Shown here: positions 9,059 to 33,278 of the stretch, piece by piece
Layout of the letters: each line of letters starts with the position of its first letter
Position numbering within the stretch: the first letter of the stretch is position 1
Origin: Candidatus Iainarchaeum sp.
Lineage (GTDB): Archaea > Iainarchaeota > Iainarchaeia > Iainarchaeales > JAZDDZ01
Direction: 5' to 3'
DNA: 64,000 bases
Assembly (NCBI GenBank): GCA_043809245.1
Contig: JAZDDZ010000008.1
Location: 21,278-85,277 of the forward strand
Notes under the pieces: generated by a model
What the model was told of the DNA's origin: nothing
Database searches by the model: none
The model's input: only the letters and a program-made list of their open reading frames with translations
Program-made: the position numbers and the translations under genes

Positions 9059-11533
9059 TTGGCTAAAGGCATTGAGGCTTATCTGAAAAAAACATCGGTT
9101 AAAGTGGACAGGGAAATCGCAAAAATTTTCCCGAAAAAAATCTCAGGCAAGTGGCTTGAATTCTCACTTGGCAAAGCCATTTACGCTTATGACGCTGAAA
9201 CCGTCAGCAACTCAATTGCTTCCCCGATATGGGATTTATTGCGCCGCGGCGGAAAACGGTGGAGGCCGGCGCTTATGCTTTTATGCAATGAAGCACTGGG
9301 CGGAAGCGAAAAAAACGCCTTGCATTTCACTGTTTTGCCCGAACTGGTGCACAACGGCTGCTTGTCCGAAGACACCGTAATTTGGATGGCTGACGGAACG
9401 CCTCGAAAGATTACGGATGCAAAGGAGGGGGAATTTGTTCTTTCCGTGGGAAGCGATTTCCGGATAACTGAAAGGAAGATTGAGAAATTCCACGATAATG
9501 GAGAAAAGCCAACGCTTAGAATTAAAACTGACCACAGGGAAATCATTGCGACAGGGGAGCACCCTGTTCTTGTCGTTTCAAAGAAACAGCCAGTGCGATA
9601 TAAAATCACGAAAAGCGGAAAGGCGCTAATCCAACAAAAATTATTTGAGGCAGATTTGACTATTTCGGAATTCTGTGACAAGATCTCCAAGGAAATCAAA
9701 ACAGACATGCATCCGAAGGCACTTAAGAATAGTTTTTACGGGTATTCAAACTGTTTGATTCCGTTACGTATTGCAGATTATGTCAGTGCGATGTTTTCCT
9801 TGGATAAGAAGGACCTGTTTAATGAGACGCAATGCCAGTTTGATAAAGCGGAAATAATTTTTTCTTGGAAAAAAGCAAGCGAATTGCGCCAAGGGGACTT
9901 TGCAGTCATTGCGAAACAATCATTCTTCGGGAGTCCCAAGGTGCCAGAATTGGGTGCCTTTGAAAAAAACTGCAAAGACAGGTTCCGAATGCCAAAAGAG
10001 TTTTCGCCTGAGCTCGCCCAGCTCTGCGGCTTTTTAGTTGGAGATGGGTGCATCCAGCTGAACTATAATGGGGGAAAAGTTGATTTTTGCGTGCCGAAAA
10101 ATGGCGCAGGAAGAAAAGAGTATGAGTCACTGATAGAAAAAGTGTTTGGCGCAAAGCCTTATCTGGGCGAAGGCTCTGTAACTATGTGTTCAAAAGCGGT
10201 TGCAGAATTGTTTATTGGTTTGGGCTTGAAAGCGAAATGTACCGAAAAGAGCCTCCCAAATTGGGTTTATTCTTTGCCTCTAGAATATAAGAGGGCGTTC
10301 GTGAAAGGTTATATAGACGCTGATGGCACTGTTACAAAAACAGGCATAACGCGGTTTGGCTGTGCAAATAGGTTGCTAATGGAGGAATTAAAGTTTTTGC
10401 TTGATGGCATGGGCTTTCTTACTACAAATATCTGCGAAAAAAGGGTTAGCAACGAGCATTTTGGAGAAAGAGCAAAGAAAAAAGAGACAATTCTTTACTG
10501 CTTTGAAATGGGCCAACGAGAAAAAGTATTGCAAGAAATTGGTTCGGAAATCGCATTTTACAAAACAAGGCTGGGAATGCAGGCTCAAAGAATGGTGCAA
10601 CTGAGATTCAGAGATGCAATCCCTTCCCTGCCTGAATCGTTCGACCGCGAACATCTCGGATTTGAAAAAATAAGAAAAATAGAAAACGCTGGAACAAGGA
10701 AAACCTTTGACTTGCAAATAGAAGGAACGCACAACTATGTTTCCAATGGAATTATAACGCACAATACGATAATGGCTGATGACATTGAGGACTGCAGCGA
10801 ACTGCGGAGAGGCAAGCCGTGCACGCACCTTGTTTTCGGGGAAGACATTGCAATCAATGCGTCCAACACGCTTTACTTTCTTCCGTTGATTTTGCTGTAC
10901 CGCAACACGCAAAAGCTTGACGAAAAAACGCGCAGGATGATTTACGATGTTTACTCTGAGGAAATGCTGCGCGTTTCAATCGGGCAGGGAATGGACATTT
11001 ACTGGCATCGCGGCAAGAAAAAAAATGTAACGGAAAAACAATACCTGCAAATGTGCTCTTATAAGACCGGGGTGCTTGCGCGTTTTGCGGCAAAACTTGG
11101 CGCGATTCTCGCGGGCGGAACGCAAAAACAGATTGAGGCACTGGGAAAATTCGGTGAAACAATCGGCGTCGCCTTCCAGATTCAGGACGATGTCTTGAAC
11201 CTGAGCAGCAAAAAATTTGCGAAAGGAAAAGGCCTGGGAGAAGACATCAACGAGGGAAAACGCTCTCTTATCATAATCAAAACGCTTGAACGCGCCACTG
11301 CTGCGGAAAAAAAGGAATTGCTGAAAATCCTTGACTCCAAAAAGACGTCAAAAAAGCAAATCAACCGCGCGCTTTCAATCATCAAAAAATACGGTGCGCT
11401 GGATTACGCGCGGAAAAAAGCGCAAAAAATCGTTAAGGAAAGCTGGAAGCGCGCTGAAAAAGTGCTGCCGGAATCGCACGCGAAAAAACTGCTGAAAGAA
11501 TTCGCTGACTTCCTTGTGGAGAGGGAGATTTAA
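9059..11533 (+). CDS. idsA: Polyprenyl (geranylgeranyl) diphosphate synthase interrupted by an intein
   Basis: GGKRWRP, ELVHNG|TIMADDIED..ELRRGKP, GQGMDI, KTG, AFQIQDD, GEDINEGK; spliced length about 355 aa. Confidence 0.92.
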   Translation: MAKGIEAYLKKTSVKVDREIAKIFPKKISGKWLEFSLGKAIYAYDAETVSNSIASPIWDLLRRGGKRWRPALMLLCNEALGGSEKNALHFTVLPELVHNGCLSEDTVIWMADGTPRKITDAKEGEFVLSVGSDFRITERKIEKFHDNGEKPTLRIKTDHREIIATGEHPVLVVSKKQPVRYKITKSGKALIQQKLFEADLTISEFCDKISKEIKTDMHPKALKNSFYGYSNCLIPLRIADYVSAMFSLDKKDLFNETQCQFDKAEIIFSWKKASELRQGDFAVIAKQSFFGSPKVPELGAFEKNCKDRFRMPKEFSPELAQLCGFLVGDGCIQLNYNGGKVDFCVPKNGAGRKEYESLIEKVFGAKPYLGEGSVTMCSKAVAELFIGLGLKAKCTEKSLPNWVYSLPLEYKRAFVKGYIDADGTVTKTGITRFGCANRLLMEELKFLLDGMGFLTTNICEKRVSNEHFGERAKKKETILYCFEMGQREKVLQEIGSEIAFYKTRLGMQAQRMVQLRFRDAIPSLPESFDREHLGFEKIRKIENAGTRKTFDLQIEGTHNYVSNGIITHNTIMADDIEDCSELRRGKPCTHLVFGEDIAINASNTLYFLPLILLYRNTQKLDEKTRRMIYDVYSEEMLRVSIGQGMDIYWHRGKKKNVTEKQYLQMCSYKTGVLARFAAKLGAILAGGTQKQIEALGKFGETIGVAFQIQDDVLNLSSKKFAKGKGLGEDINEGKRSLIIIKTLERATAAEKKELLKILDSKKTSKKQINRALSIIKKYGALDYARKKAQKIVKESWKRAEKVLPESHAKKLLKEFADFLVEREI
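9359..10765 (+). mobile_element. LAGLIDADG homing-endonuclease intein (469 aa) in polyprenyl synthase
   Basis: Starts CLSEDT; block B ATGEHP; GFLVGDG and KGYIDADG; ends TFDLQIEGTHNYVSNGIITHN followed by +1 Thr. Confidence 0.95.
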
Positions 11534-30127: not shown

Positions 30128-30505
30128 ATGGCCCTGCGCTTTCCCTGTGAAATGATTGGATGGTATGTACTTCCTGCCGTGAGAAGCGAGCTTGTGGGCT
30201 ATCTTGTTGAGAAAAAAAAGCTGAGCAGGAAGGATGTGGCGAAAAGGATCGGATTGACTGAGGCAGCGGTATGCCAGTACCTCGGAAAGAAAAGGGGAAA
30301 GAGATTCAAGTTTTCCAAAAAAGAGCTTGGATTGATTAAAGAGCTTGGGGAAAGCATTGCGGAAGCGGAAAAAAGGCCTGAACTCACATTCCTTTCAGGC
30401 ACTTGCGCCTTGTGCAAGGAAGTCAGAAAAGAAAAGGCGCTCTGCAGGATCCATAAAATAGAGGACACTGGGCTTTCCGGATGCAACATTTGCTTTGATG
30501 CTTAA
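30128..30505 (+). CDS. Cys-rich HTH transcriptional regulator (COG2522-like)
   Basis: PCE....VLPAVR, HTH GLTEAAVCQY..KKRG, C-terminal CxxC, LC.IH, CxxC. Confidence 0.82.
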   Translation: MALRFPCEMIGWYVLPAVRSELVGYLVEKKKLSRKDVAKRIGLTEAAVCQYLGKKRGKRFKFSKKELGLIKELGESIAEAEKRPELTFLSGTCALCKEVRKEKALCRIHKIEDTGLSGCNICFDA

Positions 30506-30515
30506 AGGTGGAAAA

Positions 30516-31745
30516 ATGAAAAAGATTTACATGGACCACGGTGCGACAACGCCATTGGATGAGCGTGTGCTTAAGGAAATGAAGCCATATTTTTCGGATA
30601 AATTCGGAAATGCCTCTTCACTGCATTCATTCGGAAGGGAGGCAGCCGCGGCATTGGAGAAAAGCAGGCAAACAATTGCAAAGGCATTGAACGCTGAGAC
30701 GAATGAAATTATTTTCACCAGCGGGGGCACTGAAAGCGACAACATCGCGTTGAAGGGAGCTGCTTACGCGAACAAAAGCAAAGGCAACCACATCATAACT
30801 AGCGCGATAGAACATCATGCTGTTATTTACACATGCCAGCAGCTTGAAAAAGAAGGTTTTGAGGTAACATATCTTCCTGTTTCAAGGGACGGGCTGGTTG
30901 ATGTTAGGGATTTGGAAAAGGCAATCACTGATAAGACGATTCTTGTTTCCATAATGCACGCAAACAACGAAATCGGCACAATCCAGCCTGTGAAAGAAAT
31001 CGGAGTTTTGTGCAGGGAAAAGGGGGTTTTATTTCACACTGATGCAGTGCAGAGCTTTGGCAAGGTTCCAATTGACGTGAAAAAAATGAACATTGGCCTT
31101 CTCTCGGTTTCCGCGCACAAAATTTACGGGCCTAAAGGAGTGGGCGCGCTTTACCGAAGAAATGGCACGAATGTGAAAGCGCTTTTTCAGGGCGGAAGCC
31201 ACGAGTTTCGCTTGAGGCCTGGAACTGAAAACGTTGCGGGAATTGTTGGATTGGCTAAGGCATCCGAGCTGGCGCAAAAGGAAATGAAAAAAGAAGGGGA
31301 AAGGCTTTCAAAGATGAGGGACAAATTGATTGCGGGAGTTCTTGAATCAGTTGGGTCCTCGCATTTGAACGGCCATGCAAAGAAAAGGCTGCCGAACAAC
31401 GCAAATTTTTCATTTGACTTCATTGAAGGTGAAAGCCTTTTGATGTTATTGGATGGAAAAGGAGTCGCGGCTTCAACCGGAAGCGCTTGCAGTTCAAAGC
31501 AATTGAAGCCATCGCATGTTTTGACCTCAATCGGCTTGAGCCATGTTCAGGCGCACGGCTCCTTGAGGCTGACTTTGGGAAAAAGCAATTCAATGAAAGA
31601 CGTTGATTATGTGTTAAAGGTTTTGCCGCCTATTGTGAAAAAGCTCAGGAGTTACAGCCCGCTGCAGAAAGGGAATGTTGTTGAGTTTGAGAAAATGGAG
31701 GCGGAAGAAGGCCATGGCCATGAACACGAGCATTTGGAGGAGTGA
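30516..31745 (+). CDS. iscS: Cysteine desulfurase (IscS/NifS)
   Basis: YMDHGATTP, FTSGGTESDN, SAHKIYGPKG, TGSACSS; His-rich C-terminal tail. Confidence 0.96.
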   Translation: MKKIYMDHGATTPLDERVLKEMKPYFSDKFGNASSLHSFGREAAAALEKSRQTIAKALNAETNEIIFTSGGTESDNIALKGAAYANKSKGNHIITSAIEHHAVIYTCQQLEKEGFEVTYLPVSRDGLVDVRDLEKAITDKTILVSIMHANNEIGTIQPVKEIGVLCREKGVLFHTDAVQSFGKVPIDVKKMNIGLLSVSAHKIYGPKGVGALYRRNGTNVKALFQGGSHEFRLRPGTENVAGIVGLAKASELAQKEMKKEGERLSKMRDKLIAGVLESVGSSHLNGHAKKRLPNNANFSFDFIEGESLLMLLDGKGVAASTGSACSSKQLKPSHVLTSIGLSHVQAHGSLRLTLGKSNSMKDVDYVLKVLPPIVKKLRSYSPLQKGNVVEFEKMEAEEGHGHEHEHLEE

Positions 31746-31748
31746 ATT

Positions 31749-33278
31749 ATGTACCCGAAACAGGTAATGGATGAATTCAGGCACCCAAAAAATCTTGGGG
31801 AAATAAAGAACGCAGATGCAATCGGAAAAGTGGGAAACCCGACCTGTCTTTTGCCTGATACAATTGTGCACGCCAACGATCATTTTGAAAGGATAGATTC
31901 GTTGAAAGAATCAGACCGCGTATTAGGGCACAATGGGCTTTACAACCAGGTGGAGGAAAAGTTTGCAAGGGCATATTCAGGCGAGCTTATTAAAGTCAAA
32001 AATAAGCTGGGCTGCACTTTTTTAACACCAGAGCATGAAGTATTCGCAGTAAGTGTGCCAAAAAGATGGAAGTTCACTTTCACGAAAAATAAGAAAGCGC
32101 TTTCGCCCCAATGGCTGCACGCGTATGAACTAAAGAAAGGTGATATGGCTGTTTTGCCGGTGCTTAAAGAAGTTGAAGATAAACAATTTATGGAAGTAAA
32201 GCAGGAAAGAAAAAGATTTGATTACAGAAGTAAAAAAATTCCTGAAAAAATTACGGTTTCCGAAGAATTCCTTAGGCTTTCAGGATATTACCTGGCGGAG
32301 GGCTCTTTGAAAGAGAAAATCACGAAAACATATGTTTGCTTCACTTTTAACTCAAATGAAGAAGAACTTGTTAAAGATGTTGTGGATATAACCGCAAAAA
32401 TATTCGGGTTAGAAGCAAAAGTTCATACAATTCCGCAGAGAAAAACTACTCGCGTGACAATCAATAATATCTGGGTTACAAGGCTATTCAAATCGCTGTT
32501 TGGAAAAGGGGCTGCTGAAAAAAAGCTTCCGCACTGGATGATCCTTCTGCCCCTAGCAAAACAGAAAAGCATTATTTTAGGTTTGTGGAGAGGCGATGGA
32601 TTCTTTAACCAGAAAAAGCCAAGGGCAGGATATTCAACGGTCTCACATCAGCTTGCTCTGCAGATAAAGACCCTTTTGCTGCGCCAAGAAATAGTGCCCT
32701 CAATTTACACAGAAAAAGAAAAAATCTCAAAAGACGGAGTAAAGCACAGGAAGGCATACCGAATACATGTAGGCGATAGAAAATCTGTCGAGAATCTGGC
32801 AAAAATTCTTGATTTAGAACTGAAAACTATAAAACCAGTTTTAATCGATTCATGGTTTAGCAAGGGCATGCTTTTTATTCCAATAAGCGGAATAGAAAGA
32901 ATAAATTACGAAGGCAAAGTGCATAACCTCAAAGTCGAAAATGCCATGTCTTATGTAACTGAATCCCTTACTGTGCACAACTGCGGCGACTTGCTCTGGG
33001 TTTACCTGAAAATAGGGAAAAACAAAAAAGGAAAAGAAATAATCAAGGACATTAAGGTTAAAACATTCGGTTGCGTTGTTGCAATCGCAAATTCAAGCCT
33101 TTTGACTAAAATGGTTAAGGGAAAAACAATTGAATTCGCGGAAAAGCTCACAAAACAGGATTTGCTGAAAAAGCTCGGAAAAGTGCCTGCAATAAAGGTG
33201 CATTGTTCAGTGCTTGCGGTTGACGGATTGCAGAACGCGTTAAAGGATTACAGGGAAAAAAAGGGGAAAGGAAAATGA
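31749..33278 (+). CDS. iscU: Fe-S scaffold IscU/NifU-N interrupted by an intein
   Basis: MDEF.HPKN.G...GNPT|CGD, FGCVVAIA, KVHCS.LA; spliced length about 130 aa. Confidence 0.93.
   Translation: MYPKQVMDEFRHPKNLGEIKNADAIGKVGNPTCLLPDTIVHANDHFERIDSLKESDRVLGHNGLYNQVEEKFARAYSGELIKVKNKLGCTFLTPEHEVFAVSVPKRWKFTFTKNKKALSPQWLHAYELKKGDMAVLPVLKEVEDKQFMEVKQERKRFDYRSKKIPEKITVSEEFLRLSGYYLAEGSLKEKITKTYVCFTFNSNEEELVKDVVDITAKIFGLEAKVHTIPQRKTTRVTINNIWVTRLFKSLFGKGAAEKKLPHWMILLPLAKQKSIILGLWRGDGFFNQKKPRAGYSTVSHQLALQIKTLLLRQEIVPSIYTEKEKISKDGVKHRKAYRIHVGDRKSVENLAKILDLELKTIKPVLIDSWFSKGMLFIPISGIERINYEGKVHNLKVENAMSYVTESLTVHNCGDLLWVYLKIGKNKKGKEIIKDIKVKTFGCVVAIANSSLLTKMVKGKTIEFAEKLTKQDLLKKLGKVPAIKVHCSVLAVDGLQNALKDYREKKGKGK
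31845..32981 (+). mobile_element. LAGLIDADG homing-endonuclease intein (379 aa) in IscU
   Basis: Starts CLLPDT; block B LTPEHE; GYYLAEG and GLWRGDG; ends VHNLKVENAMSYVTESLTVHN followed by +1 Cys. Confidence 0.95.

Follow-up and report, generated by a model that had tools for sequence, protein, structure and literature searches.

The stretch of DNA analyzed here, 64,000 nucleotides of contig JAZDDZ010000008.1 of Candidatus Iainarchaeum sp. (the window), contains a polyprenyl synthase gene that is interrupted in frame by an intein directly upstream of the codons for the first aspartate-rich motif, DDxxD. We consider it very probable that this is a canonical class-1 homing intein, still mobile, that occupies a catalytic hot spot of the sole enzyme of this archaeon resembling geranylgeranyl diphosphate (GGPP) synthases. 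The genome is a metagenome-assembled one from Iainarchaeota/"Diapherotrites" (1.48 Mb in 55 contigs, estimated 91.8% complete). The intein itself is of the standard class-1 LAGLIDADG kind and represents an allele that recurs in many copies; the host and the site are unusual for inteins and appear undescribed in the literature searched.

The intein and its insertion site

The gene is an uninterrupted open reading frame (ORF) with a TTG start codon (Table 1). In Pfam, the 824-amino acid product matches polyprenyl_synt in two stretches (2.4e-63), Intein_splicing (PF14890, 4.9e-16), and LAGLIDADG_3 (PF14528, 6.4e-9). Both NCBIfam intein models score above their cut-offs, intein_Nterm (TIGR01445) with 32.2 bits versus 24.5, and intein_Cterm (TIGR01443) with 31.5 bits versus 15.6. 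A preceding interpretation made without database searches (the sequence-only reading) had proposed a 469-amino acid LAGLIDADG intein followed by Thr at position +1, and the junctions that it quoted were mapped exactly to the intein boundaries given in Table 1. The predicted ligated product has 355 amino acids and reads ELVHNG-TIMADDIED across the junction.

Table 1. Window coordinates of the features of the prenyl synthase gene and of the second intein-bearing gene, IscU (a slash marks a splice junction)
Feature	Coordinates	Strand	Description	Basis
Precursor ORF	9059..11533	+	824 amino acids plus stop; polyprenyl/GGPP-type synthase with intein	ORF list, Pfam, NCBIfam, junction mapping
N-extein	9059..9358	+	amino acids 1-100; ends in ELVHNG; Gly100 is position -5 before the first DDxxD	
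Intein	9359..10765	+	amino acids 101-569, 469 amino acids, CLSEDT...GIITHN; Hint domain, helical linker region, LAGLIDADG endonuclease	
Splicing block A	9359..9376	+	CLSEDT; Cys1 invariant in 19/19 homologs	
Splicing block B	9551..9568	+	TGEHPV; Thr and His of TxxH invariant	
First LAGLIDADG motif	10022..10051	+	LCGFLVGDGC; G-x-x-x-GDG invariant	
Second LAGLIDADG motif	10301..10330	+	VKGYIDADGT; GY-D-D invariant	
Splicing block F	10703..10738	+	TFDLQIEGTHNY; Asp and His invariant	
Splicing block G	10748..10765	+	terminal invariant His-Asn	
C-extein	10766..11530	+	amino acids 570-824, 255 amino acids; starts with TIMADDIED; +1 Thr is position -4 before the first DDxxD	
First aspartate-rich motif	10778..10792	+	DDIED, amino acids 574-578	
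Second aspartate-rich motif	11186..11200	+	here DDVLN, amino acids 710-714	
IscU/NifU_N scaffold ORF	31749-33278	+	contains a 379-amino acid LAGLIDADG intein	
IscU intein	31845-32981	+	amino acids 33-411	junctions GNPT/C...HN/CGD

The splicing motifs were compared in an alignment of 19 full-length intein-bearing homologs (803-872 amino acids, 37-59% identical overall to the window protein), all of which have the intein at the same site. Cys1 (Cys101 of the ORF), the block B Thr and His (T165, H168), the block F Asp and His, and the terminal His-Asn (H568-N569) are invariant in all 19, and the +1 residue is Thr or Ser. The acidic residues of both LAGLIDADG motifs, GFLVGDG and GYIDADG, are invariant in these homologs as well as in 10 of 10 genome-derived inteins, and an intein-only alignment of the latter displays the same conserved residues. 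The AlphaFold model based on this 10-copy alignment has a mean predicted local distance difference test (pLDDT) score of 82.8. In the fold search (Foldseek, PDB), the best matches are TliVMA (7qsu, E=2e-19), PhoVMA, PI-PfuI, PI-SceI, and PI-PkoII, followed by I-DmoI; the top matches of a profile search of PDB sequences are likewise endonuclease-bearing inteins.

All sequence features for class-1 splicing and for a two-motif LAGLIDADG nuclease are thus present. By Cys1, the block B TxxH, the His-Asn end with Thr at +1, the Hint profile and fold, and the clean in-frame insertion, the element classifies as a class-1 intein; by its two motifs, the PF14528 match, and the fold matches, it classifies as a single-chain LAGLIDADG homing endonuclease, with DNA cleavage as its predicted activity. 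The solved inteins TliVMA and PhoVMA (7qsu, 7qss, 7qst), PI-PfuI (1dq3), PI-SceI (1vde), and PI-PkoII (2cw7) also consist of a Hint domain split by a two-motif LAGLIDADG endonuclease, and share with the window intein Cys1, the terminal His-Asn, and insertion into the conserved catalytic region of an enzyme that is essential. However, they are only 13-15% identical to it in the fold alignments and interrupt V/A-ATPase, ribonucleotide reductase, and DNA polymerase, whereas the window intein resides at site -5/-4 of a prenyl-diphosphate synthase.

The closest full-length relatives of the window intein are all allelic, that is, found in polyprenyl synthases. Among the nearest non-allelic ones are the inteins of the Fe-S cluster assembly protein SufB (L046 and L050, 28-31% identity; also P0043), whose host is similarly metabolic and unrelated to DNA, but differs from the synthase together with the site, and whose identity is mainly in the endonuclease and the C-terminal part. 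Another non-DNA metabolic intein host is the MptE-like 6-hydroxymethylpterin diphosphokinase, represented by two full-length intein relatives (P0049 and P0061, 29-30% identical) with a helix-turn-helix domain in the linker. A recent arrival of the intein from another gene of the same genome was considered and rejected, as the best intragenomic matches are weak (E 1e-6 or worse).

The intein is located exactly between Gly100 (-5) and Thr570 (-4), counted back from the first Asp of DDIED (amino acid 574), which refines its earlier placement just before the first DDxxD. In all 70 intein-free ortholog rows, coming from 69 related genomes, H[NTESD][GA] is directly followed by [TS][IL]xxDD, with Thr (66 rows) or Ser (four rows) as the counterpart of the +1 residue. 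Since these rows run unbroken through HNG/T(S), the +1 Thr is a native residue of the host and the insertion is precise; removal of the in-frame insert restores an uninterrupted host sequence, as in the intein-free rows. The aspartate-rich regions of these synthases are involved in substrate binding and catalysis, and the fifth residue upstream of the first of them controls chain length, for instance Phe-77 in the S. acidocaldarius GGPP synthase and Tyr-79 in the E. coli farnesyl diphosphate (FPP) synthase, according to PMC4244643; in these points that study agrees with the role in substrate binding and chain length that the sequence-only reading had ascribed to the region.

A similar placement, in the most conserved substrate-binding motif, is described for the P-loop and catalytic-motif inteins of ATPases and replication proteins, which are also sporadic among relatives (PMC4760082). 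The hosts of those inteins bind nucleic acid or ATP, whereas the window host belongs to isoprenoid and lipid metabolism. Because the intein is inside the most conserved motif of its host, the homing site would be conserved and imprecise loss would be lethal.

We suggest that the single trans-isoprenyl diphosphate synthase of this archaeon is translated as an 824-amino acid precursor, in which the intein splits the helix bearing the first DDxxD between the chain-length position -5 and position -4. Cys1 would undergo the N-S acyl shift, the +1 Thr would carry out the trans-esterification, and the terminal Asn would cyclize with the help of the penultimate His. The exteins would be ligated into the 355-amino acid enzyme, the sequence of which is encoded directly by the intein-free orthologs. 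The unspliced precursor should be inactive, because its catalytic helix is interrupted. Presumably, the LAGLIDADG endonuclease cuts intein-free alleles at the conserved HNG/T..DD coding site, and the repair copies the intein in.

Distribution, descent and probable mobility of the allele

In the window's order, Iainarchaeales, an ortholog of the synthase was found in 130 of 196 species genomes (E<=1e-60), and 12 of these 130, the window's included, contain the full intein (a match over the whole 824 amino acids). The empty junction was checked in the 70 rows from 69 of the remaining genomes, some others being cut by contig ends. All 12 full inteins found in the whole phylum (215 genomes) belong to this order. 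The distribution is patchy even within genera: for instance, the intein is present in four of the 22 listed ortholog-bearing genomes of genus g38. One genome, G141, has at the same site a 169-amino acid mini-intein that contains the splicing blocks and is without the LAGLIDADG domain. In addition, the C-extein of the G141 synthase gene (L068, G141:C128, minus strand, 501-2090) is interrupted by one in-frame TGA (YLNM(stop)LSKTG) in place of the Cys codon of homologs, which may reflect a sequencing error, a pseudogene, or recoding.

The allele extends beyond the phylum. When about 186,000 species-representative genomes were scanned with the alignment of the inteins alone, 24 loci were obtained, 15 of which are polyprenyl synthases with the intein at the same site, namely 11 relatives from the order and four divergent copies (L042-L045) that are 29-32% identical, have Ser at +1, and come from small genomes outside the phylum set; in one of the four (L045), the N-junction alone is on the contig. 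The archaeal-type synthase at L042 (CAZQIO010000025.1) is filed under 'uncultured Candidatus Saccharibacteria bacterium' and is probably mis-binned or mislabeled. Searched alone against 1.84 billion cluster representatives, the intein has 3280 matches with E<=1e-3, of which 33 reach E<=1e-30. Each of the seven best is a polyprenyl synthase that has the intein at Pfam profile position 53-55, and 12 of the 22 top matches scanned are alleles at the same site (clusters at 50% identity). A motif scan among the 150 matches listed revealed at least 10 same-site alleles, including classic type-I contexts such as FHNF/SLIHDD. Finally, the architecture is shared by 18 other protein clusters of near-precursor length and by a 66-member cluster of the ESM Atlas, and one cluster had been automatically named 'geranylgeranyl pyrophosphate synthase/intein/homing endonuclease' by the Joint Genome Institute (JGI).

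The prenyl synthase intein is thus a recurrent allele, already visible to automatic annotation. The sequence-only reading had held that many known prenyltransferase inteins at this site would speak against its view of the element, and such inteins largely turned up in sequence databases: the 18 clusters, the 12 of 215 genomes, the 12 further clusters, and the 66-member cluster. The profile search confirmed the combination of polyprenyl_synt, Hint, and LAGLIDADG that this reading had proposed, but as one that recurs in databases and is not unique.

The extein tree, built from 85 rows, agrees with the family codes, and the 15 intein-bearing rows are scattered over it. The intein label changes 11 times on this tree, at least 10 of the changes being forced by well-supported (starred) branches. 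Several carriers are paired at very short distance with a sister that is without the intein, as in G140/G151 with branch lengths of 0.049 and 0.044. A single clade for the 12 intein-bearing exteins of the order is rejected by the approximately unbiased (AU) test (p=2e-52). Another AU test, forcing the G181 and G108 exteins together on the 85 rows (p=4e-38), was discarded as ill-posed: its outcome reflects the close intein-free sisters and not congruence.

Selection was analyzed in three close pairs of intein-bearing genes, all belonging to one genus. Purifying selection acts on the endonuclease, the ratio of nonsynonymous to synonymous substitution rates (dN/dS) of its domain being 0.08-0.12, comparable to that of the splicing domain; the ratio for the exteins is 0.03-0.09. 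The synonymous divergence (dS) is 0.51-0.60 in the intein, 0.56-0.96 in the N-extein, 0.87-1.08 in codons 1-60 of the C-extein, and 1.25-1.60 in its codons 61-255, so that the dS of the intein is less than half that of the distal extein in all three pairs. The rise of dS away from the intein hints at the gradient expected from homing with co-conversion. Together, the low endonuclease dN/dS and the dS gradient point to an element that would still be functional and mobile rather than a passive relic.

Several observations weigh against this conclusion. The intein and extein trees are broadly congruent, with a correlation of 0.88 between intein and extein pairwise identities (105 pairs). In an AU test limited to the 15 intein-bearing rows, the G181 plus G108 pair of the intein tree is not rejected by the exteins (p-AU 0.17), and the placement of G168 in that tree is weakly rejected (p-AU 0.024, for a group named post hoc). 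The separate trees proposed by the sequence-only reading gave a divided result, the carriers being scattered on the extein tree, yet the intein tree being largely congruent with it; because of this congruence, vertical descent with repeated loss explains much without recent homing. The dS contrast comes from three non-independent pairs of one genus; the extein dS exceeds 1 and is near saturation, and the GC content at third codon positions is slightly lower in the intein than in the extein. Finally, comparison of the 15 intein-bearing with the 70 intein-free alleles revealed no consistent difference in the 21 nucleotides flanking the site on either side, and with no visible difference in these 42 nucleotides, no susceptible or immune homing site can be named.

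The same congruence, together with the non-significant or weak tests on the 15 carriers, would be expected if the intein were an immobile relic that entered once, before the families of the order diverged, and has since been inherited vertically and lost many times, still splicing but no longer homing. Such a history would also agree with the divergence between families, which in the intein equals or exceeds that in the extein, and with the mini-intein, which demonstrates that the endonuclease can be lost. We nevertheless regard it as unlikely. An idle nuclease should decay, whereas the dN/dS of the endonuclease is as low as that of the splicing domain and its catalytic motifs are intact in every copy aligned (19/19 and 10/10); the reduced dS of the intein, with a gradient over its flanks, does not fit either, and with intein-free alleles as closely related to carriers as in G140/G151, precise deletion would have had to occur many times independently.

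The homing cycle of inteins comprises invasion, loss of the endonuclease, and precise deletion. We suggest that the still-mobile homing intein follows this course in Iainarchaeales, where it would be old and passed on mostly within lineages, repeatedly lost or degraded (one mini-intein), lost by precise deletion, and probably re-acquired by homing. Its presence in about one tenth of the orthologs would be due to this loss and degradation combined with probable re-acquisition.

The host enzyme and lipid synthesis

The window gene is the only PF00348 gene of the genome. It contains both aspartate-rich motifs; the leading two Asp of the second one are invariant in the 19 homologs, and its fifth residue varies between N, E, D, and S across them. 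The genome also encodes PcrB/GGGP synthase, two UbiA prenyltransferases, and HMG-CoA reductase, so that the lipid pathway needing the synthase product is present. The dependence of lipid-precursor production on splicing, put forward in the sequence-only reading, is therefore a reasonable supposition, given the sole PF00348 gene in a genome of the above completeness and the downstream lipid genes.

Among solved structures, the P. horikoshii GGPP synthase (1wy0), which has Tyr at position -5, is the one nearest to an intein-free ortholog (E=2e-47). The archaeal type-I GGPP synthases (1wy0 and the S. acidocaldarius enzyme) share with the window clade the PF00348 fold family and the order of motifs, the first DDxxD followed by RRG and the second DD motif. 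However, position -5 is occupied by Gly in the window clade (HNG/T), but by Tyr in 1wy0 (HNY/S) and by the residue reported as Phe-77 in PMC4244643. The window clade also misses the NCBIfam equivalog cut-offs. With the GGPP synthase and IdsA equivalogs tested (NF041003 and NF040698), the best-matching models, three intein-free orthologs score 247-256 bits for IdsA (cut-off 468) and 195-209 bits for GGPP_syn (cut-off 500), while the intein-split precursor has 233 and 191 bits, respectively, below both cut-offs. Of the earlier label, polyprenyl/GGPP synthase, the polyprenyl_synt family membership holds, but GGPP synthase is not established at the equivalog level. Judging from the sequence, with Gly at -5 and scores below the equivalog cut-offs, the enzyme is probably a GGPP-synthase-like short-chain trans-isoprenyl diphosphate synthase, whose product may be C20, C25, or longer.

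The neighboring genes encode a beta-propeller protein, two proteins without a Pfam match, and the glycine-cleavage P subunit; there is no lipid operon context among them. A scan for bacterial-type promoters and terminators gave results at or below the shuffle expectation. Some relatives have additional copies of the synthase: two tandem copies in G004 (L088, G004:C26), and a second, different polyprenyl synthase (LHNASLILDDMMD) adjoining the ortholog in G029 and G191 (L015/L095). At L057 (G143:C1), an intein-free ortholog is part of an 859-amino acid open frame, with no stop between it and the upstream sequence, which may represent a fusion or simply a frame that is open upstream.

An intein at the catalytic helix of the sole enzyme of a metabolic step, persisting over several families, could serve regulation, if its splicing responded to a signal such as redox state, temperature, Mg2+, or substrate and so switched isoprenoid and membrane-lipid synthesis post-translationally; conditional splicing has been proposed for other catalytic-site inteins (Novikova et al. 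2016, PMC4760082). We find this highly improbable, since about nine tenths of the orthologs in the order are without the intein and close sisters differ in its presence, so that no lineage-wide need is apparent. Moreover, the extein cysteines near the junction are not conserved (among the homologs, for instance, C, D, N, S, G, R, or Q occurs at position +10), a sensing feature was not found, and the retained endonuclease fits a selfish element better. It is likewise speculative and very doubtful that the rate of splicing sets the supply of isoprenoid lipid precursors. The signals that might conceivably gate splicing are redox state, temperature, Mg2+, substrate occupancy of the half-formed site, and contact with the host cell. 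If splicing were gated, membrane synthesis in these tiny archaea would be switched after translation.

Many DPANN archaea are thought to rely on their hosts for lipids. Public sequencing runs from one groundwater study (three runs with small word shares of 0.14, 0.05, and 0.00, none of them RNA) provided four short contigs (depth 2-4) on the window, none of which spans a junction or contains joints. That the gene is an assembly chimera, or that its precursor never splices and lipids are taken from the host, is hardly conceivable even with this presumed dependence and with public contigs that span neither junction, as the 824-codon frame is open, the splicing residues are all invariant, the exteins are under strong purifying selection, the remaining lipid pathway is encoded, and a chimera is made implausible by the recurrence of this architecture in assemblies obtained independently in different studies.

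Other inteins of the genome and implications

The genome contains 33 PF14890 matches. Translation and Pfam analysis of its open frames identified at least 17 intein-bearing genes, the window synthase and IscU included, a very high intein load for 1.48 Mb. The other hosts are EF-2 (a mini-intein), NrdD, a SMC_N/Rad50-like ATPase, two T2SSE ATPases, two HerA-like ATPases, Lhr, FttA, both A-ATPase catalytic subunits, RadA, Cdc48 (two inteins), the PolD small subunit, and DNA ligase (loci L115-L129 on contigs C7, C10, C13, C16, C23, C24, C42, C44, C47, C48, C49, C52, and C54). Most of these hosts are usual; the outliers, both metabolic, are the prenyl synthase and IscU.

The IscU intein (Table 1) directly precedes a conserved cluster-ligand Cys, about 21-22 kb downstream of the synthase intein. 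IscS is encoded just upstream of it (30495-31745), and a CysK-like gene just downstream. The sequence-only reading had counted two intact inteins in non-DNA enzymes about 21 kb apart; the IscU intein and the distance proved real, but the count was too low, as EF-2, A-ATPase, Cdc48, and FttA also belong to such hosts.

Novikova et al. (2016, PMC4760082) place 66.9% of the intein hosts of archaea in COG category L, and the enzyme is absent from the top-15 archaeal and bacterial host tables in section 6 of that paper. The words 'polyprenyl', 'geranylgeranyl', and 'prenyl' do not occur in its main text and supplement file 2, while supplement file 1 might list rare hosts. This supports, within those parts of the source, the earlier view of an isoprenoid enzyme as an atypical host. 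In the full-text literature on inteins with prenyl synthases, isoprenoids, DPANN, and the phylum, no published description of an intein in a prenyl synthase was found.

The intein is a candidate for a new splicing or endonuclease reagent with Thr at +1. For annotation it is a caution, since a split domain lowers profile scores below the equivalog cut-offs and doubles the protein length, and reconstructions of DPANN pathways could miss or misjudge such a synthase. With this host, isoprenoid and membrane-lipid synthesis joins the short list of non-nucleic-acid processes invaded by inteins, and the insertion obeys the usual rule, as it lies where an essential enzyme present in single copy is most conserved and binds its substrate. 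The allele family combines full inteins with one mini-intein and, within single genera, many empty sites, and is large enough to provide natural material for studies of the homing cycle in uncultivated archaea.

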